A stretch of DNA of 64,000 nt from Escherichia phage DT571/2 (NC_047749.1); one strand, 5' to 3'; shown: positions 2,559 to 44,200, counted from the first letter of the stretch. The notes: a model not told the origin generated them from the letters alone. Numbers and translations: made by a program.

Positions 2559-2795
2559 TTAAAGAGCTGTCTCTTTAATAGACTCCCACTTCTTGGGGTC
2601 TTTAAAACCAGGAAGCATATCTTCACTAACATCCCAGTTTTCTTCCGTAGAAAAGTCTGGCCATTCATTCCAGTTACCTTCCAGCTCTTCATACCAGGTA
2701 TCCATTACCTCGCGATTAGAAAGTCGTGTATAGTCTCTAGCGGACTTATGAGTGCTAGCACGGTTAAAATCATTCTTTGCTACAAAATTACGCAT
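2559..2795 (-). CDS. Hypothetical acidic Trp-rich protein (78 aa)
   Basis: ORF with GGAGAAA RBS; start lies immediately after terminator hairpin. Confidence 0.5.
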   Translation of the reverse strand: MRNFVAKNDFNRASTHKSARDYTRLSNREVMDTWYEELEGNWNEWPDFSTEENWDVSEDMLPGFKDPKKWESIKETAL

Positions 2796-2803
2796 AGTTT
2801 CTC

Positions 2804-2830
2804 CAAAAATATGAGGGGCTTTCGCCCCTC
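2804..2830 (-). terminator. Intrinsic terminator (GAGGGGC-GAAA-GCCCCTC + U-run)
   Basis: GC-rich hairpin followed by T-run on minus strand. Confidence 0.7.
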
Positions 2831-2837
2831 TTATCTA

Positions 2838-3353
2838 TTACTTCGCTTTACGTTTACGAGCTGGTTTAGCAGATTTACGAGCAGAATCACCCGTAAATTT
2901 AATACCCACACCATAGCACAGAGCACGAACGTTATCTTTGCTATATTCTACGCCGAAGATATTTGGCTTAACAGAACCAAACTGGCCACGAGTATCACGC
3001 AGTACATCTGCCGTTGGTTTACGCTTCTGGTTAACTGCTTTTTCGTAATCTTTCATGGCCATGCCATTACGAGGGAACAATTCAGCTCCAGCATTGAAAC
3101 TCAGTGTTACTGGAACAGATTTGTGACCGTAACCCTGTACATAGGTTACGAGGCGGACTACAGAACGAGTAGCATTCTTAGCCTTCGGCTTTTGACGAAT
3201 CGGAGCCGGACGATTCAGTGCCTGTGCAGCTTGAGCATCAGTAGGATGCTTGCGCAGGTGGCGTTCCAGACGAGCTTTGCGGTTAGCCTCAGTCTGTGGG
3301 AAAGTTTTAACTGCCGGAGCTGCTTGAGTTTTTGCGTTTTTCTGCTTAGCCAT
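2838..3353 (-). CDS. Hypothetical basic protein (171 aa), possible nucleic-acid binding
   Basis: Lys/Arg-rich N- and C-termini; own sigma70 promoter 3392-3420; terminator downstream. Confidence 0.6.
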   Translation of the reverse strand: MAKQKNAKTQAAPAVKTFPQTEANRKARLERHLRKHPTDAQAAQALNRPAPIRQKPKAKNATRSVVRLVTYVQGYGHKSVPVTLSFNAGAELFPRNGMAMKDYEKAVNQKRKPTADVLRDTRGQFGSVKPNIFGVEYSKDNVRALCYGVGIKFTGDSARKSAKPARKRKAK

Positions 3354-3391
3354 TATTTGTTTTCCTTTTTGTTTATCAATTTATGAAGTAT

Positions 3392-37411: not shown

Positions 37412-37854
37412 TTAAAATTAAGTTAACTCATCCAGATTGTATGCCTAAGATTGGCTCTGAAGATGCCGCAGGCATGGATCTGCGAGCATTCTTTGGTACT
37501 AACCCTGCTGCAGATTTACGTGCTATTGCACCAGGCAAATCCTTAATGATTGACACCGGTGTCGCGGTAGAAATTCCGCGAGGTTGGTTCGGTTTGGTGG
37601 TTCCGCGTAGTTCTTTAGGAAAGCGTCATCTGATGATTGCAAATACCGCGGGGGTGATTGATTCAGACTATCGTGGTACTATTAAGATGAACCTTTATAA
37701 CTACGGTTCTGAAATTCAAACTCTGGAGAATTTTGAAAGACTTTGCCAGTTAGTGGTACTACCGCACTACTCAACCCATAATTTTAAAATCGTTGACAAA
37801 CTAGAGGAGACTGATCGTGGAGAAGGTGGATTTGGAAGCTCAGGAAGTAAGTAA
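37408..37854 (+). CDS. dut: dUTP pyrophosphatase
   Basis: dUTPase motifs AGMDLRA and GVIDSDYRG. Confidence 0.9.
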   Translation: MIKIKLTHPDCMPKIGSEDAAGMDLRAFFGTNPAADLRAIAPGKSLMIDTGVAVEIPRGWFGLVVPRSSLGKRHLMIANTAGVIDSDYRGTIKMNLYNYGSEIQTLENFERLCQLVVLPHYSTHNFKIVDKLEETDRGEGGFGSSGSK

Positions 37855-38089
37855 TTTTACTGATCCTAATGGGGTAGACTTAGACTTAGCTGAACCTACT
37901 AATTTCTATCATGTGGCTGTTGCTCAGCCTGATCTTAACAAAATTGTACTTAAAGTCGATATGTTTGGTAATGTGGAACATTGGGATGAGGAAGGATTCT
38001 TGAACTTATGTAATGAGTCTCAAGACCCAACTCTCAAAGCCCTGTTAGCCGTATACAATTTAGGTATTATCAAAGGAAGTAAAGATTAA
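37817..38089 (+). CDS. Hypothetical protein (90 aa)
   Basis: GTG start with GAGGAG RBS; followed by bidirectional terminator. Confidence 0.4.
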   Translation: MEKVDLEAQEVSNFTDPNGVDLDLAEPTNFYHVAVAQPDLNKIVLKVDMFGNVEHWDEEGFLNLCNESQDPTLKALLAVYNLGIIKGSKD

Positions 38090-38090
38090 T

Positions 38091-38127
38091 AAAAAACCCC
38101 CAGTGGACAATCCACTGGGGGTTTTTT
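38091..38127. terminator. Bidirectional intrinsic terminator at convergence of early (plus) and late (minus) transcription
   Basis: AAAAAA-CCCCCAGTGGA-CAA-TCCACTGGGGG-TTTTTT symmetric hairpin. Confidence 0.85.
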
Positions 38128-38311
38128 ATTTATTTACCTACCTTTAACTCAGCAATCTCGGCTTACGTTGCCTAGATATTCGGTATCAACGTTTACACAG
38201 TGTGCGTCGTATTCCACAGCATGAGATGTGTATAGAGTTCCTTCTGCTCCAGTAAGTACCACCTGGCTAACACCCGCATACTTACCGGAGCCTTTCAGCG
38301 CCTTGAGTGAA

Positions 38312-40615
38312 TTATTTCGCTGCCTTCAGCGCGGCTATCTCTGCCTTCAAATCCTCGATTTGCTTATTGAGATACTGCACACAACCCATCAAATCCATAA
38401 CGATCGGGTTTACATCCACCGACGGCCTGTCGCGGGTCTTACCACCGATAATAGCGTTAGTCTCTGGGTCCACCTCCACATCGTACGTCTCTTCTCGATG
38501 TTTGATGTATTGAGGTGCAATCGCTTCAGCCTCCTCGGCAATTATGCCGAAGCGGACGCGCTCCTGCACATCGTCCTTATACACGTAGTTCACCATGCGC
38601 ATTTGTTCAATACGTGCAACCGCTTCTGTAACGTCTGCATTGACAATATCTTTCTTAAAGTCCCGCCCCGATGTGCCTTGCAAGGCAAGAACACCACCAG
38701 ATGAAGGCCAGTTGATTGTAATGCCAGTGCCGTTTCCCTTCTCAAAATATTTATAGATCTGGTTACTATTGATATTAACCGAATCCCACATCGTGCGGAA
38801 ATTACCAGCCGGGACTGAATCTTTTGCGTTGTGTAGAACGAAAGACTTCACCGGACCGTCGGTAGTCGGGCGAATGGTTATATCACGGGCCCACACTACT
38901 CCGCCTGTTCCCGCTCCGGGGATCTCCACGACGGTATCTCGGTACGCGCCCGACGCGTCATATGATTGCAACTTAAAATTGCCCGAAGCGTCGTTAATCC
39001 CCATACGCCAGCGTACTTTATCGGCGGAATCCGCCCAACATACACCGTCAAAATCGGAGTTCACCGAGTTCACAACTATACTATTCGGTATAGTTAGTTT
39101 ACCTGTTTCGTCAAAATCCAGATTCGCGCTTCTTTGTGTGGTACTGTTCGTTACGGAAATACGAGCAGAATAGTTACCGCCGATATCGGCACGGGCACAG
39201 AAACTAGCTTCAGCCTCATTGGCGCCACTAATCTTGTACAATGAGAATATGTTACCACCTTGAGCAATTGTGCCGTCAGCTGGACGTGTCGCATCACCAT
39301 TGATCACACTCCAAGACGTATTCGCCGCCACGAACCCGCCTGACGCTCGAATAACCCACACACCCATGAAGTTATTTGGACGCAACTCCGTTACGGTCCG
39401 ACCATAGATCGCGCTGACCCTCGAGGCGTCCAGGTTAATGATGCCGTAGGAGACCGCGCCGTTACTAACAGTTAGGTTGCTTGGCGTCCGATATTGCGAA
39501 TCCGCGCCACCAGACCCATGGAACGCGCCACTTTCACCGTTGATAATACTTGCGGACCCGCCGCCGTGTAATTCGACGCGGCCTGTGATGTTAGGTGCTC
39601 CTGATTCGTAGATATACCCATCGTTGCCACTTTGCCCGCCGTCCCCCCGGCAGAACAAGCCGAATATTGACCCAGGCTGAACACCATTACGGTCTGGCAC
39701 TCGGAAGGTCGTTGTGCCGTCACCAGTAGAATACTTGCCGCGCTGATTTGGGTTAGCCAGCCAGGTAGCGTCACTAATTGGCGATAGCATTTGCGCATAC
39801 GCCCAGAGTTCGGGCCAGTCAGCACGATTCAACAACTGACCATCACTCACCACCTCGTACGGCTGAATGTATGCGCGACTATCCCGCAGGTGAAAGTCAC
39901 CTACCCCATAGTTCATAACGCCATTCATGGTAGGTCCAACTGTACCAGTGTTAATCTTATTCTCTACCCAACGTTTGGTTACAGCATCGTAGTCCCCCAC
40001 AGGGTCCCCAGCAAGAGGGGTGGACCCTTGTGGTCTTACAACGTCCCATAAAGCTTCTCTATTATTTACCCCGGTACCCCCTTGTTCAACCGGGAGTGCT
40101 AACCACTCATTCTCTGTATCACTATAAACTCCCCAAGTACCATTATTTTGAATAGTTAATCTAGAATTCTTATCACCACTGTAGATTATGGTTTCTGTTT
40201 CGGACTCCTGACTAAATCTATCGAGTTCCAGTGCGGTTTTAGCCCCCTCTAGTGTAGAAGAACCAGTACCACCTTGAGCAATCGTAATAGCCTTAGTAAG
40301 CGCATTTAATTCTGTAATATCATTATTAGCACCTTTAGCAGCTTTACTATCTATGGTGATATTCATACTACCAAGAGCAGTATTGATATTCCCAATAGCC
40401 TCTACATTGTTCTGAATGGAACTATCAATACCAGTTAAACGAGTATTTAATTCTTCTTTATCTATAGTGTAGTTAGAGATTTGTAGGTATTTAGAAGTTA
40501 GTGCAACAGCACCAGCTTCTCCATCAACAGAGAAAACGCCTGCAACCGCAGCATCTCTGTTAACTACAACGTATGGCGCCATTGCGCCGGATTTAGGCAT
40601 TAAATTACGTGACAT
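38312..40615 (-). CDS. ltfB: L-shaped tail fibre protein, second copy (LtfB-like) with C-terminal intramolecular chaperone domain
   Basis: 767 aa; internal ~120-aa module near-identical to upstream fibre; C-terminal ...LKAEIAALKAAK chaperone-like end; AAGGAAA RBS. Confidence 0.8.
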   Translation of the reverse strand: MSRNLMPKSGAMAPYVVVNRDAAVAGVFSVDGEAGAVALTSKYLQISNYTIDKEELNTRLTGIDSSIQNNVEAIGNINTALGSMNITIDSKAAKGANNDITELNALTKAITIAQGGTGSSTLEGAKTALELDRFSQESETETIIYSGDKNSRLTIQNNGTWGVYSDTENEWLALPVEQGGTGVNNREALWDVVRPQGSTPLAGDPVGDYDAVTKRWVENKINTGTVGPTMNGVMNYGVGDFHLRDSRAYIQPYEVVSDGQLLNRADWPELWAYAQMLSPISDATWLANPNQRGKYSTGDGTTTFRVPDRNGVQPGSIFGLFCRGDGGQSGNDGYIYESGAPNITGRVELHGGGSASIINGESGAFHGSGGADSQYRTPSNLTVSNGAVSYGIINLDASRVSAIYGRTVTELRPNNFMGVWVIRASGGFVAANTSWSVINGDATRPADGTIAQGGNIFSLYKISGANEAEASFCARADIGGNYSARISVTNSTTQRSANLDFDETGKLTIPNSIVVNSVNSDFDGVCWADSADKVRWRMGINDASGNFKLQSYDASGAYRDTVVEIPGAGTGGVVWARDITIRPTTDGPVKSFVLHNAKDSVPAGNFRTMWDSVNINSNQIYKYFEKGNGTGITINWPSSGGVLALQGTSGRDFKKDIVNADVTEAVARIEQMRMVNYVYKDDVQERVRFGIIAEEAEAIAPQYIKHREETYDVEVDPETNAIIGGKTRDRPSVDVNPIVMDLMGCVQYLNKQIEDLKAEIAALKAAK

Positions 40616-40633
40616 AGTATTTCCTTAGTAAAT

Positions 40634-40649
40634 AGGGGCCGAAGCCCCT
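40634..40649 (-). terminator. Hairpin between ltfA and ltfB (AGGGGC-TTCG-GCCCCT), weak terminator/attenuator
   Basis: GC hairpin with short U-run, overlaps ltfB RBS region. Confidence 0.4.
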
Positions 40650-40654
40650 TTGAA

Positions 40655-43600
40655 TTATTTAGCTTCGAGTTCAGTAATCTTGGCTTCCAGAGCCTCAACC
40701 TTATCCATCAAAGCGAGGATAGCTTCGTGGTGGAGGGCTGCTGCAACACCGTAGGTGTCTACACCTTTAACGTCCGGGACTACCTCACCATCACGTAGAT
40801 TCATGGAACCTGCATTGAATATAGCATCCGGGAAGCGGTTCTCCACATCCTGAGCGATGAACCCGTAGTTCCTCTTAGAGTTATCCTGCTTGACACGCCA
40901 CGATACACCCTTGATGGTACGCATAGCGCCGAGAGGGTCCGGGATGCGTACAACATCTTCCTTGATGCGCTCGTCAGAAGTAGTGCTCCACCCACCCGGA
41001 CATACCGCATTACCAGCCTGCATGAACTGGAAATACCTCGGAGTACTACCACTCACACTGGTCATTATGGTCATATCGCCATTACGTTCGGAGTATACTC
41101 GCCCGTACATGGCACCACTTGGTGATACGAAGTCCAAAAATCCGGAGGTGTAACTACCACTACCTGTGATACGCACAATATTGCCTTTGGCAATCATATT
41201 GCCCGGTGTGACTAAGTCCCCGCTACTATTAAAGTCAAAGCTCCGAGTAACACCCAGAGTAGAGTTGTACACGGATATACGGGCAGCATACGTACCACCT
41301 ATCGTGCCTACCATACGGAAATCTGCGGAACCTTCCAGCTGACCACCAACACGGTACTCACTAGTAACACGACCGCCAGTAACAGACGTTGTTGCAGGTG
41401 GCAGTGTGGCATCACCGTTAATCACAGACCACGACGTATTCGCAGCAACAAATCCGCCCGATGCACGAATCACCCAAACGCCTACGAATGAGTTAGGTCT
41501 TACCTCGGAAGCACGCCCATAAGCCGCATTGACTCTAGATGCCCTGAATGTGTATGTGTTATATCTTGCGTTACTCCCCTCTGCGTTGCTAAGACTAATT
41601 GCAGAAGTTCCGTTATTAGAAGATGCAAATGCACCTGACGGAGCTCCTGCGAGATAACTATAAGAAGTAAAATCCCCTGAGATATCAGGGAGGCCGTTTT
41701 CAAGAATACCGCCATAATTGCCGCCCGCATCACCACGCCCGAACAACCCCTTGATTGAACCTGTTTGAGTACCGTTACGGTCTGGCACGCGGAAAGTAGT
41801 AGAGCCATCACCTGTTGAATACTGGTGTCTGTTCCAAGGGTCAGCAAGCCAATCAGCATCAGAAATAGGGGAAAGCATTTGAGCATAAGCCCACAACTCG
41901 GGCCAGTCAGCCCTATTAAGAAGTTGTCCATCAGAAACGACTTCATATGGTTGAATATACGCACGACTATCACGAAGGTGGAAATCACCTACACCATAGT
42001 TCATGACACCATTCATTGTTGGCCCTACTGTACCGGTGTTAATCTTATTCTCTACCCAACGCTTAGTAACAGCATCGTAGTCGCCAACAGGATCACCAGC
42101 CAGCGGCGTTGAACCAACGGGTCGCACGTTAAGCCATGCGGCAGCACGGTCTGCCAAATCCGAAAGGTTATTAGCTTTTAATAAGTAATCAGTATCTGAC
42201 TGAGTTTTAGCGTCTGCTAAAGCAGAATCAACCTCCATCTTAGTATACGTGGTAGCAATATCAGCCTTATCTGCTAAAGCAGAATCAACCTCCATCTTAG
42301 TATACGTGGTAGCAATATCAGCCTTATCTGCTAAAGCAGAATCAACCTCCGTAGTACTATATAACTCGAGGGCTATACGGGCGTCTTCTTTAGTTGTTGC
42401 ACCAGTACCGCCTTGATTAATACTAACAGTACCTTGTAGTGAGGTATCAATTTCAACGTTACCAGTTATATCATCTGGAGAGATACCATTAACTGTCACA
42501 ACATAAGGAATCTGATCTTTAATAACGCCAGCATCTTCTTCGCCTTTAGTTGGTGCACGGAATGCCTGTCCTTGCATCATATCTGGTAGACGGAAGGTTG
42601 TAGAGCCATCACCCGTAGAGAAGTAAAGAGACGCACCGGCTTGCCATTCAGCTTCTGGTACAGAAGGAATTAAGCCAGCCTCAATAGCCTCCCAAGTATC
42701 TGGATAGTCTGCACGAAGAACTTCACGACCATCAGCAGGAAGAACACCAGGGTAGCCAACACCTGAATCTTTATCATAAGGGAACCAAGTAACTTCACCC
42801 AGCCATAAAGAGGGGTTACCACCAGGAAGGGTGATCTGTACGTTACCCCCATCATCTGCACGAACGTTATTAACAGAAACTAACTTTTGCTCTGTTTCTA
42901 CTAACTCTAATACTGGAGTCTCAGCAGTTCCAGCTACTTTGTACCACCCATATTTTGAGTTAGTTTGGTTCCAGACTAGAACCTTTTCGTCTAGCACACG
43001 GTTTACAACATCGGCATCAGCTTCTGCTTTAGTCTTATAAACTTTGATAAAACCAGAAATATCTACTTTATCAAGTTTACTATCAACAATCTGAGTTGCA
43101 CGATCTGCCTCAGCTTTAGCACGATCTGCCTCAGTAGTAGCATCGATAGCTTTATCACCGGCTTCAGTAGCAGAACCAGCAGCATTAGTTTCAGAAATCT
43201 TAGCGTTTAGTTCTGATTGCCTTGCAGCAGCAGCATGTTCGCCAGCAGTGGTAGCAGCAGCATCAGCTCCATCTTTAGCTGTTTCAGCACCAGTCTTAGC
43301 AGCTTCTGCGGCTATTTGAGCTTGTTGCGCAGCTGTTTTAGCTTGTTCAGCTAGTAAACGACTTTGTTCAGCATTCTGCGCTGCCAATTCTGCAGAGTCT
43401 CTAAATCCCTCTGATTCTTGCGCAGAAGCTGCAGAATTATCTGCACTGCTTTGGGCTAAACCCGCCTGTCTTTCTGACTCAGTAGCAGAGGCAGCAGATT
43501 GAGTTGCTGAAGCTTCGGAAGCACCAGCATGAATACCCGCCTGAATCTCTGAATCTTTAGCGTTATTTTCAGAGTCCTTAGCTGCTATTTCAGAACCTCT

Positions 43601-43774
43601 AGCAGCAGCAGCGGATCCTGCAGAGGCCTCTACAGCAGCAGTTAATTCACCAGCAGTAATAGAACTAATAGAATTACCTAAAACTACTGTATATTTAGGA
43701 TACTTACTAGCAGTAGTTGTAGTGTCATCTATGTTCAGAATCTGCTGTACAATAATTTTAGTTTTAAGTGCCAT
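40655..43774 (-). CDS. ltfA: L-shaped tail fibre protein (pb1/LtfA-like) with C-terminal intramolecular chaperone domain
   Basis: N-terminus [32 protein letters not shown] typical of T5 pb1; Ala/Ser-rich coiled region; 57-bp tandem repeat; C-terminal chaperone-like domain. Confidence 0.85.
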   Translation of the reverse strand: MALKTKIIVQQILNIDDTTTTASKYPKYTVVLGNSISSITAGELTAAVEASAGSAAAARGSEIAAKDSENNAKDSEIQAGIHAGASEASATQSAASATESERQAGLAQSSADNSAASAQESEGFRDSAELAAQNAEQSRLLAEQAKTAAQQAQIAAEAAKTGAETAKDGADAAATTAGEHAAAARQSELNAKISETNAAGSATEAGDKAIDATTEADRAKAEADRATQIVDSKLDKVDISGFIKVYKTKAEADADVVNRVLDEKVLVWNQTNSKYGWYKVAGTAETPVLELVETEQKLVSVNNVRADDGGNVQITLPGGNPSLWLGEVTWFPYDKDSGVGYPGVLPADGREVLRADYPDTWEAIEAGLIPSVPEAEWQAGASLYFSTGDGSTTFRLPDMMQGQAFRAPTKGEEDAGVIKDQIPYVVTVNGISPDDITGNVEIDTSLQGTVSINQGGTGATTKEDARIALELYSTTEVDSALADKADIATTYTKMEVDSALADKADIATTYTKMEVDSALADAKTQSDTDYLLKANNLSDLADRAAAWLNVRPVGSTPLAGDPVGDYDAVTKRWVENKINTGTVGPTMNGVMNYGVGDFHLRDSRAYIQPYEVVSDGQLLNRADWPELWAYAQMLSPISDADWLADPWNRHQYSTGDGSTTFRVPDRNGTQTGSIKGLFGRGDAGGNYGGILENGLPDISGDFTSYSYLAGAPSGAFASSNNGTSAISLSNAEGSNARYNTYTFRASRVNAAYGRASEVRPNSFVGVWVIRASGGFVAANTSWSVINGDATLPPATTSVTGGRVTSEYRVGGQLEGSADFRMVGTIGGTYAARISVYNSTLGVTRSFDFNSSGDLVTPGNMIAKGNIVRITGSGSYTSGFLDFVSPSGAMYGRVYSERNGDMTIMTSVSGSTPRYFQFMQAGNAVCPGGWSTTSDERIKEDVVRIPDPLGAMRTIKGVSWRVKQDNSKRNYGFIAQDVENRFPDAIFNAGSMNLRDGEVVPDVKGVDTYGVAAALHHEAILALMDKVEALEAKITELEAK
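42212..42349. repeat. Perfect 57-bp tandem repeat (~2.4 copies) inside ltfA, encoding EVDSALADKADIATTYTKM repeats
   Basis: Identical nucleotide units and identical 19-aa peptide units in the translated ORF. Confidence 0.85.
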
Positions 43775-44196
43775 TATTGAGTTACTCCATCGCTGATGTA
43801 TACTTTACCTTCCATAATACGGAAAGAACTGACTTCAGAGCCAATTACATCACGAGTCATTAGGATATCATAATAACCCGCAAAGCGTTGTCTAGGGTTA
43901 TACTTATCACGTTCTTTAGATGCTTTTTCACCAATATTAGTAACGTCTGCAACGGAAAGACTAATTGCAGCAGCACCTTGAGCAGCATCAATAATACTAG
44001 TAGTAAAAGATGCCAAAGTTTCCGCGTTCTCGTCTAAGCTAGACTTAATAGTTCCACGAAGTGAATAACCTGCTAGATTAACAGGTGTTTCAGAAGGAGG
44101 GTATACACTATCATCAACATCCATAAATTGCATGATAAGACCATAAGGCACTTTCTCATCAACAACAATATCAATTACTCTATTTTCAGTACTCAT
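43774..44196 (-). CDS. Tail collar protein (T5 p132-like)
   Basis: 140 aa, same size and position as T5 p132 between pb4 and ltf. Confidence 0.7.
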
Positions 44197-44200
44197 TATT

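Follow-up and report, generated by a model that had tools for sequence, protein, structure and literature searches.

The lateral tail fibre of the T5-like coliphage DT571/2 is, with a probability of about 0.9, a branched structure in which LtfA trimers stand on LtfC, LtfB is docked on LtfA and two cassette ends are each specific for an O-antigen. The branched LtfA/LtfB fibre of this phage was already published in 2016, when it was described by genetics with LtfA anchored to the tail and LtfB carried on LtfA (Golomidova et al. 2016, Viruses 8:26; PMC4728585). The same work backs the branched, dual-specificity fibre that had been suggested in the initial annotation of this DNA. Our analysis adds several refinements: the cassette starts with an invariant block of 87 amino acids, sugar specificity is probably determined by the insert between two conserved blocks, and the DNA of the two 87-aa copies is no more homologous than the peptide forces. 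These refinements could guide the choice of junctions in fibre chimeras.

In the proposed mechanism, LtfA trimers would be anchored with their N-termini in the tail-tip collar formed by LtfC. LtfB trimers, which lack a tail-binding domain, would dock with their first ~45 residues on LtfA aa 223-471, resulting in a branched fibre. Both arm ends would represent one type of portable cassette, in which the near-invariant 87-aa neck/collar block is followed by a variable insert, the conserved block of 26 aa, a distal domain that is again variable, and an S74 chaperone; the chaperone of each arm would fold the trimer, cleave itself and then be removed. The variable parts would bind distinct O-antigens, O87 in the case of LtfA and most probably O81 in the case of LtfB. 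Two specificities would permit passage through the shields of two host types to the final receptor BtuB. Dual-cassette branched fibres explain how the O-antigen shield can be passed by a virulent siphovirus in more than one serotype of E. coli. Furthermore, the fibre locus illustrates the change of host range via cassette swapping among unrelated phages, which is useful for host-range engineering.

The ltfC-ltfA-ltfB operon

The analysed window, a stretch of 64,000 nucleotides, contains the lateral tail-fibre operon ltfC-ltfA-ltfB of DT571/2 (species Tequintavirus DT5712) on its minus strand, on which all parts of the operon given below also lie. The operon comprises ltfC (43774..44196; 140 aa), encoding the tail-tip collar protein that anchors LtfA (Pfam LtfC PF23926, E = 2.3e-15), followed by ltfA (40655..43774; 1039 aa plus stop) and ltfB (38312..40615; 767 aa plus stop) in the ORF list. 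Exact-sequence look-up showed that LtfA was identical to the DT571/2 entry AJA41761.1 / YP_009784960.1 and LtfB to AJA41760.1 / YP_009784959.1, and the two consecutive L-shaped tail-fibre genes recognised in the initial annotation were confirmed at the positions given there. In the record of DT57C, the gene equivalent to ltfC was annotated as collar tail protein, L-shaped tail fibre attachment, and the equivalent flanking genes as pb4, pb3, D13-D15 and dut. Alignment with DT57C gave 97-98% identity in the alignable parts of the ltf locus and of the window's first 25 kb.

The gene order, the protein lengths, the number of 19-aa repeats and the junction of the ABF fusion were the same in the window as in the published description of DT571/2 (PMC4728585). 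In fact, the published DT571/2-ABF fusion gene corresponded to ltfB of the window, an 11-nt crossover and ltfA of the window, and was otherwise mismatch-free across the compared junction region. The crossover of the deletion was located at 39906-39916, inside the ltfB copy of the 87-aa block. In the spacer between ltfA and ltfB (40616..40654; 39 nt), a GGGGC-UUCG-GCCCC hairpin precedes an AAGGA ribosome-binding site; its fold energy of -12.2 kcal/mol was not significant (z = -1.2). The terminator scan found a bidirectional terminator with a perfect 20-bp stem (38088..38130) that separates ltfB from the plus-strand genes converging on it; the fold energy of this terminator was -32 kcal/mol (z = -7.0). 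No tRNA genes or Rfam families were found within the window. Two GC3-rich ORFs (722-1516 and 2748-3383) were considered as extra foreign islands and rejected as antisense shadows of annotated minus-strand genes.

Parts of the two fibre proteins

LtfA matched the DT57C LtfA structure PDB 8hqz over its full length (E = 0). Its N-terminal region (aa 1-229; 43088..43774) is a T5 pb1-like tail-attachment domain with an Ala-rich coiled coil: the T5 pb1-type family PHROG 24369 (profile length 1396) was matched by LtfA aa 3-229 (E = 1.2e-42) and had no match in LtfB. The first 80 amino acids were reported to share 63% identity with T5 Ltf (PMC4728585). The N-terminal part of LtfA was resolved by cryo-EM in DT57C, where nine LtfA N-termini are held by a dodecameric LtfC ring (Ayala et al. 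2023, Nat Commun 14:8205; PMC10713586). The following region (aa 223-471; 42362..43108), the proposed docking site of LtfB, resembled phiEco32 gp14 and SU10 gp12. It was 44% identical to the first fibre gene of a phiEco32 contig (L031; tblastn, E = 1e-52), and aa 232-453 matched the SU10 proximal long-fibre protein gp12 (PDB 7z47_D, E = 2.5e-46), in whose structure 90 residues only were modelled. Inside this region, a second collar-like motif was found at aa 342-398. Tandem Repeats Finder detected a 57-nt tandem repeat of 2.4 perfect copies (42213..42350; 100% matches) encoding the 19-aa motif VDSALADKADIATTYTKME; the ABF fusion mutant carries one extra copy of it (PMC4728585). Toward the C-terminus, a variable insert between the conserved blocks (aa 684-764; 41483..41725) was ~30% identical to LtfB and to DT57C LtfA, and the distal domain (aa 791-932; 40979..41404) had no relation to LtfB beyond ~aa 861 by segment identities. 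Kuravirus-like podoviruses were the best relatives of the distal part, for example a 76,184-bp contig (L028) with 52% identity over LtfA 561-1036. LtfA ends in an S74 intramolecular chaperone (aa 933-1039; 40658..40978; Pfam PF13884 at aa 933-984, E = 1e-10), which weakly matched the phage fibre chain of PDB 6f45, and cleavage is predicted from the motif SDERIKEDV to occur before Ser933.

LtfB begins with a phiEco32 gp15-like N-terminus (aa 1-45; 40481..40615), the proposed plug docking on LtfA. Of its residues, 32/45 (71%) were identical to those that begin the second fibre gene of contig L031, and the same figure was given for phiEco32 in the earlier study (PMC4728585). Alignment with DT57C LtfB revealed a 7-residue-periodic repeat, GI[DN]TxIx (aa 62-90; 40346..40432), that is 21 aa shorter than in DT57C and contains a 21-nt-period repeat at 40360-40399. 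Between its conserved blocks, LtfB has a variable insert (aa 327-417; 39365..39637) that was 20-21% identical to LtfA. This insert is followed, beyond the second block, by the distal domain (aa 444-648; 38672..39286). LtfB 284-650 was 99.5% identical to DT57C LtfB, and its next best relatives were ~45-kb siphoviruses (Envy and Sloth 56%, bob 74% over part). LtfB 190-650 was modelled as a monomer with AlphaFold2 from a 41-sequence alignment; the mean pLDDT was 53, and the model was confident at aa 439-519 only, a beta-sheet. A Foldseek search of this model against the PDB returned nothing at E <= 0.001, the top weak matches being other fibre proteins, and the NCBIfam search found no meaningful family for LtfA or LtfB. 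The C-terminal S74 intramolecular chaperone of LtfB (aa 649-767; 38315..38671; Pfam PF13884 at aa 650-703, E = 2.2e-10) has a predicted cleavage site before Ser649, judged from the S649-GRDFK motif. It strongly matched the chaperone of DT57C LtfA (E = 1.4e-45), more weakly a myelin regulatory factor chain (PDB 7dc3, E = 8e-4), and had no BLASTP similarity to the chaperone of DT571/2 LtfA. The chaperone-like C-termini noticed earlier in both proteins thus match Pfam Peptidase_S74.

The two proteins share a module extending over LtfA 445-861 and LtfB 105-514, with 55% identity across 428 aa (BLASTP, E = 9e-131). A near-identical shared segment of ~120 aa had been noted in the initial annotation; the sharing held over these 428 aa, but the identical run was only 87 aa, at LtfA 554-640 (41855..42115) and LtfB 197-283 (39767..40027). 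Counting the leading RPxG as well extends it to 91 aa, one of them mismatched. The second shared block noted there was found as 26 identical amino acids, GVWVIRASGGFVAANTSWSVINGDAT, at LtfA 765-790 (41405..41482) and LtfB 418-443 (39287..39364), with 79% nucleotide identity between the copies. The sequences distal to the blocks had been thought to differ completely. This was true far out, where the identity fell to 0-16%, but not for the ~80 aa directly past block 2, where it was 33-38%; the strongest divergence began between the blocks, with ~20% identity at LtfB 338-404.

A compositional shift was also found. The GC content was 0.513 at 38312-39700 and 0.507 at 40655-41500, corresponding to z = 6.6 and 4.9 against same-size windows (mean 0.39, sd ~0.02), and both ranges lay above all other same-size windows of the 64 kb. 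GC3 changed after codon 196 in ltfB, where the 87-aa block begins (from 0.26 to 0.54), and after codon 535 in ltfA (from 0.23 to 0.43). Since these change points lie near the start of the shared module, the GC-rich part includes this module. The distal halves are GC-rich as described before, but the rise already sets in where the shared module begins on its N-terminal side. These results and the relatives of the distal parts support the view that the C-terminal halves of LtfA and LtfB are compositionally foreign and mosaically common to unrelated phage groups, in agreement with the horizontally acquired cassettes proposed earlier.

The specificity determinant was reported to occupy less than the whole divergent C-terminal region and to share 82% identity with the fibre of the podovirus phiKT (PMC4728585). 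We reproduced this 82% exactly in the insert of DT57C LtfA between the conserved blocks (78/95 positions), while the far-distal part was 10-33% identical to phiKT; DT57C and phiKT share a host (O22-like). The earlier notion of a receptor-binding domain lying simply distal to the shared blocks does not fit this location, and the specificity determinant is best supported in the insert between the blocks, not in the far-distal domain alone. The best candidate for the O87 determinant of DT571/2 is, we infer, the LtfA aa 684-764 insert, which matches the published "receptor recognition site". A comparable sharing of a specificity insert by LtfB and PGT2, like that of DT57C LtfA and phiKT, was rejected (31-36% identity). 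The isolation host of PGT2 is strain 7s, not HS3-104 (PGT2 genome announcement).

Attachment of LtfB and origin of the two cassettes

Published genetics support the branched fibre: the host range was switched between O22 and O87 by ltfA swaps, and an ltfB opal mutant lost growth on the O81 host (PMC4728585). Less favourable to it, O81 was named only as "most probably" the receptor of LtfB, and purified LPS inhibited adsorption only weakly (PMC4728585). ltfA and ltfB are adjacent co-directional ORFs, 39 nt apart and both fibre-like, and natural deletions can join them into one functional ORF (PMC4728585), so a single fibre gene interrupted by a sequencing frameshift or nonsense error might be considered. 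The sequence refutes this: ltfA runs through an entire S74 chaperone to a TAA stop, after which the hairpin spacer, AAGGA and ATG open a separate gene. Furthermore, the N-terminus that LtfB resembles belongs to a separate gene in phiEco32, both genes were deposited independently for DT57C and DT571/2, and the engineered ltfB opal mutation gave a distinct phenotype (PMC4728585). LtfA and LtfB might instead form two independent fibre sets, each separately attached to the virion. The LtfA-LtfB junction was never visualised. Because all visible fibres were missing in the ltfB opal mutant, the attachment of LtfB via LtfA was not directly demonstrated (PMC4728585), and cryo-EM of DT57C showed weak densities close to the tail tip that were tentatively given to LtfB. 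However, robust LtfB density was absent at the collar (PMC10713586), and LtfB has no homology to T5 tail-attachment sequences, and the other tail proteins are T5-like (PMC4728585). Its N-terminus is of the type of the second phiEco32 fibre protein, whose gene lies downstream of the homologue of the LtfA middle part. On the LtfB-dependent host, LtfA was required whichever LtfA receptor domain was present (PMC4728585). We therefore regard independent fibres as very improbable and hold to the LtfB arm docked on LtfA.

As regards the origin of the paired arms, ltfB may have arisen as a tandem duplicate of ltfA within the lineage and diverged later, or the C-terminal cassettes may have been acquired horizontally and separately. 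A duplication would agree with the 428-aa homologous region and its 87 plus 26 perfectly identical residues, and with ltfA and ltfB of DT57C being still more similar, chaperones included. Moreover, members of the 87-aa block family are present in 240 phage records (T5-like, Kuravirus-like, phiKT-like and other groups), yet the exact 87 residues were found in none of them outside the DT57C/DT530/DT571-2 group and were absent from the other 111 retrieved family proteins (modal difference 7). On the other hand, the two copies, 100% identical in amino acids, were only 79% identical in nucleotides: 39/87 codons were identical, against 33-36 expected from independent back-translations. Their GC3 values were unequal (0.345 vs 0.517), and at the nucleotide level neither copy was the nearest relative of the other. 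In addition, the distal parts are closest to different phage groups, and the N-terminal halves are unrelated, being counterparts of two different phiEco32 genes. Duplication is thus quite unlikely, and separate horizontal acquisition is preferred.

Copies on T5-like-sized contigs differed by 1-8 residues and were equally saturated at synonymous sites. Active synonymous recoding beyond randomness was rejected, as identical codons were not below expectation (P(sim <= obs) = 0.78-0.94). In the literature consulted, we did not find fully randomised synonymous sites described for a protein-identical 87-aa block. Recombination that forms deletions between ltfA and ltfB destroys one specificity. It is conceivable, though rather doubtful, that selection within the virion (a common partner or a tail fold-back interface) holds the copies identical in protein while DNA homology beyond the peptide-forced level was lost, with such recombination lowered but not abolished. 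More plainly, the 87-aa module could be under extreme purifying selection everywhere, and two near-consensus copies could have met by chance.

Comparison with known fibre systems

The closest system is DT57C, from which DT571/2 differs in the ltfA cassette from ~aa 651 onward, chaperone included, and in LtfB, which is 21 aa longer in DT57C owing to the N-terminal 7-residue repeat. The podoviruses phiKT and PGT2 and the ~45-kb siphoviruses Envy, Sloth and bob also possess the 87-aa block (95-97%), block 2 and the S74 end, but in a single fibre protein each and on different virion scaffolds; in these five phages the insert or distal part of DT571/2 LtfA was never matched above ~50% identity. The two-protein architecture is found in the Kuravirus podoviruses phiEco32 (gp14/gp15) and SU10 (gp12/gp13). 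Their first gene has the homologue of LtfA 223-471, and their second gene combines an LtfB-like 45-residue start, the 87-aa module (~69% identity) and an S74 chaperone. In SU10, the two proteins were described as the proximal and the distal segment of a fibre that has an elbow. These fibres are mounted on a podovirus adaptor, whereas the fibre of DT571/2 belongs to a siphovirus LtfC collar. T5 pb1 (Ltf) with LtfC is similar to DT571/2 in the N-terminal attachment region, the adjacent ltfC and the self-cleaving C-terminal S74 chaperone. However, the fibre of T5 has one protein only (1396 aa) and lacks a second arm, and the homology is limited to the N-terminal part of LtfA. The role of pb1 is the same as that of the DT571/2 fibre, namely to bind the O-antigen reversibly and thereby accelerate or permit adsorption.

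Gene order and identity of the lateral tail-fibre locus

The fibre genes were identified by exact-sequence matches, LtfA being AJA41761.1 / YP_009784960.1 and LtfB AJA41760.1 / YP_009784959.1 of phage DT571/2 (108,418-bp genome). The published details agreed with the window: LtfB has 767 aa, and a 19-aa motif is present in two complete copies and one incomplete copy (Golomidova et al., 2016; PMC4728585). The initial annotation was largely right in its interpretation. The feature is real, but it was already known, being the published, genetically characterised LtfA/LtfB branched fibre of DT571/2. Three minus-strand genes follow each other in transcription order: ltfC (43774-44196, 140 aa), ltfA (40655-43774, 1039 aa) and ltfB (38312-40615, 767 aa). 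The surrounding layout is that of a T5-like phage. The plus-strand genes upstream of 38100 corresponded to those annotated in DT57C, the near-identical sister phage, as SbcC-like exonuclease subunit (D13), D14 resolvase, flap endonuclease (D15) and dUTPase, and the minus-strand genes past 44200 were counterparts of pb4 and pb3 as annotated in DT57C. Against window positions 38000-44200, DT57C showed 97% identity with 83% of the query covered (megablast), and its record carries ltfA, ltfB and ltfC annotations there. Its LtfA and LtfB have 1076 and 788 aa, compared with 1039 and 767 aa in DT571/2, so the window does not come from DT57C.

Terminator scanning and folding located a bidirectional terminator after ltfB (38088-38130), in which a perfect palindromic stem of 20 bp has A and T runs on its two sides (-32 kcal/mol, z = -7). 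The early-gene unit and the tail-fibre unit converge on it, and the roughly 180 nt that part it from the stop codon of ltfB are apparently non-coding. A 90-aa ORF on the plus strand (37817-38089) overlaps the end of dut and extends to this terminator; its counterpart was absent among the CDSs annotated for that stretch in the DT57C RefSeq record. The possibility that ltfA and ltfB are one gene split by a frameshift did not hold, as ltfA ends with a TAA stop and ltfB has its own ATG after a 39-nt spacer, with AAGGA as ribosome-binding site. Within the spacer (40616-40654), a GGGGC-UUCG-GCCCC tetraloop hairpin precedes U-rich sequence and the ltfB AAGGA. This hairpin might cause partial termination or affect mRNA stability; in folding, its energy was not significant against shuffled sequences (z = -1.2).

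Shared module, chaperones and composition

The two fibres share a long module (LtfA 445-861 vs. LtfB 105-514; 55% identity over 428 aa, E = 9e-131, BLASTP). A shared segment of about 120 aa had been proposed; the block does exist, though exact identity runs for 87 aa (LtfA 554-640 = LtfB 197-283), and a second shared block proved to be 26 aa long (LtfA 765-790, LtfB 418-443). The sequences distal to these had been described as completely different. That was correct far out, where identity fell to 0-16%, but 33-38% identity remained over the first 80 residues past the second block. Divergence begins already between the blocks, where the insert was about 20% identical, while identity around the second block was 84%.

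At the DNA level, the copies of the 87-aa block (41855-42115 in ltfA, 39767-40027 in ltfB) differed at 54 of 261 nt, all synonymous, despite 100% protein identity. Identical codons numbered 39 of 87, which matches the 33-36 ± 4 expected for independent back-translations, and GC3 was 0.345 in ltfA and 0.517 in ltfB. Synonymous sites were equally saturated in family copies with 2-9 amino-acid differences. Among 112 retrieved block-containing family proteins, the exact sequence was found only in DT571/2 LtfB (modal difference, 7), and copies on T5-like-sized contigs differed by 1-8 residues. We read this pattern as mainly the result of extreme purifying selection acting on a structural module that is mobile.

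Independent confirmation of the window's identity came from the fused ltfAB of the deletion mutant DT571/2-ABF (KU159289), which could be rebuilt from the window as ltfB as far as 39905, then 11 nt common to both genes (ATGAACTATGG; 39906-39916 / 41994-42004), then ltfA, with zero further mismatches over the junction region compared. The crossover falls within the 79%-identical block, and the longest shared run (26 nt, 39948-39973 / 42036-42061) was unused by the deletion. A perfect 57-nt tandem repeat (42213-42350, 2.4 copies), which encodes the 19-aa motif VDSALADKADIATTYTKME, lies just past the proposed LtfB docking region of LtfA; ABF, whose fusion is functional, carries one unit more of this repeat (PMC4728585). 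The sole sizeable difference between the LtfB proteins of DT57C and DT571/2, seen in their alignment, was a 7-residue-periodic repeat, GI[DN]TxIx (LtfB aa 62-90; 40346-40432, minus strand), 21 aa shorter in DT571/2, which suggests copy-number slippage. Host range was unaffected by this region (PMC4728585).

Chaperone-like C-termini were borne out, since Peptidase_S74 domains terminate both proteins. BLASTP detected no similarity between the two chaperones (38315-38671 vs. 40658-40978), whereas that of DT57C LtfA was close to that of DT571/2 LtfB (E = 1.4e-45). Compared with DT57C, DT571/2 LtfA has therefore swapped its chaperone together with the distal domain.

The GC-rich distal halves were likewise confirmed. 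GC was 0.513 in 38312-39700 (z = 6.6) and 0.507 in 40655-41500 (z = 4.9), above every same-size window elsewhere, against which z was computed; window GC was 39.8%, or 39.1% after leaving out both fibre genes. The compositional shift is thus present. The LtfA N-terminal half is Ala-rich (GC 0.449, GC3 only 0.24), which partly confounds total GC, and GC3 was therefore preferred. The best single GC3 change point in ltfB came after codon 196, at the start of the 87-aa block (0.26 to 0.54, log-likelihood ratio 24), and that in ltfA after codon 535, 18 codons ahead of the block (0.23 to 0.43, log-likelihood ratio 25). These points indicate that the compositionally foreign cassette takes in the shared module as well as the variable parts and chaperone.

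Relatives and the likely specificity determinant

The 87-aa block was present in 240 phage records, with at least 90% identity in 118, and its carriers included T5-like phages, phiKT/PGT2 podoviruses, ~45-kb siphoviruses and ~70-kb phages; in Kuravirus podoviruses it was about 69% identical. Beyond the block, LtfA had no relative above 59% in the phage collection, the best full-length matches (49-52%) coming from Kuravirus-like phages. The corresponding part of LtfB was 99.5% identical in DT57C, followed by ~45-kb siphoviruses (56-74%). Such mosaic relatives support horizontal exchange of cassettes, as had been proposed.

The receptor-binding domain had been placed far distally. The evidence instead puts the best-supported determinant inside the conserved scaffold. 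Recombinants took up only part of the divergent region, and the site identified in DT57C LtfA as recognising the receptor shares 82% identity with the phiKT fibre (PMC4728585). In our alignment, DT57C LtfA and phiKT matched at 78/95 positions (82%) in the insert between the conserved blocks, and distal to the second block identity was 33%, then 10%. Because this insert is shared with a podovirus of the same host, it is likely an O-antigen specificity element. For DT571/2 we infer that the likely determinant is the equivalent insert, LtfA aa 684-764 (41483-41725, minus strand). The LtfB segment between the blocks is aa 327-417 (39365-39637, minus strand), and the LtfB/PGT2 pair did not repeat the insert pattern. 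Records of the PGT2 host conflict: GenBank MG201401 has 'E. coli 3-104' in its host field, where the genome announcement names strain 7s as isolation host. This uncertainty bears on any inference of O81 specificity common to PGT2 and LtfB.

Branched-fibre model and known systems

Exchange of the divergent ltfA segment switched host range between E. coli 4s (O22-like) and HS1/2 (O87); an ltfB opal mutant did not grow on HS3-104 (O81), and growth on HS3-104 needs LtfA, whichever LtfA receptor domain is present. LtfA and LtfB each bear a chaperone (PMC4728585). In the DT57C cryo-EM structure, nine LtfA N-termini were held in a dodecameric LtfC ring, and no LtfB density was seen at the collar (PMC10713586). 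Our searches matched ltfC to Pfam LtfC, and the LtfA N-terminus to the T5 pb1-type family and the solved DT57C LtfA structure. A second collar-like motif (42581-42751, LtfA aa 342-398; …ADG.E.LRADYP..W…STGDGSTTFRLPD) was seen inside the proposed, gp14-like docking region, with 30% identity to the shared module's collar portion and a Pfam Collar score of 23.5 bits, just under the cut-off of 24. The proposed docking region (LtfA 232-453) matched the proximal long-fibre protein gp12 of SU10 (E = 2.5e-46). On the phiEco32 contig, the first fibre gene matched LtfA 223-471 at 44%, and the next gene opens with a match to LtfB 1-45 (71%, 32/45), with the shared module coming after. The phiEco32 pair thus recovers the grounds on which the branched model was published.
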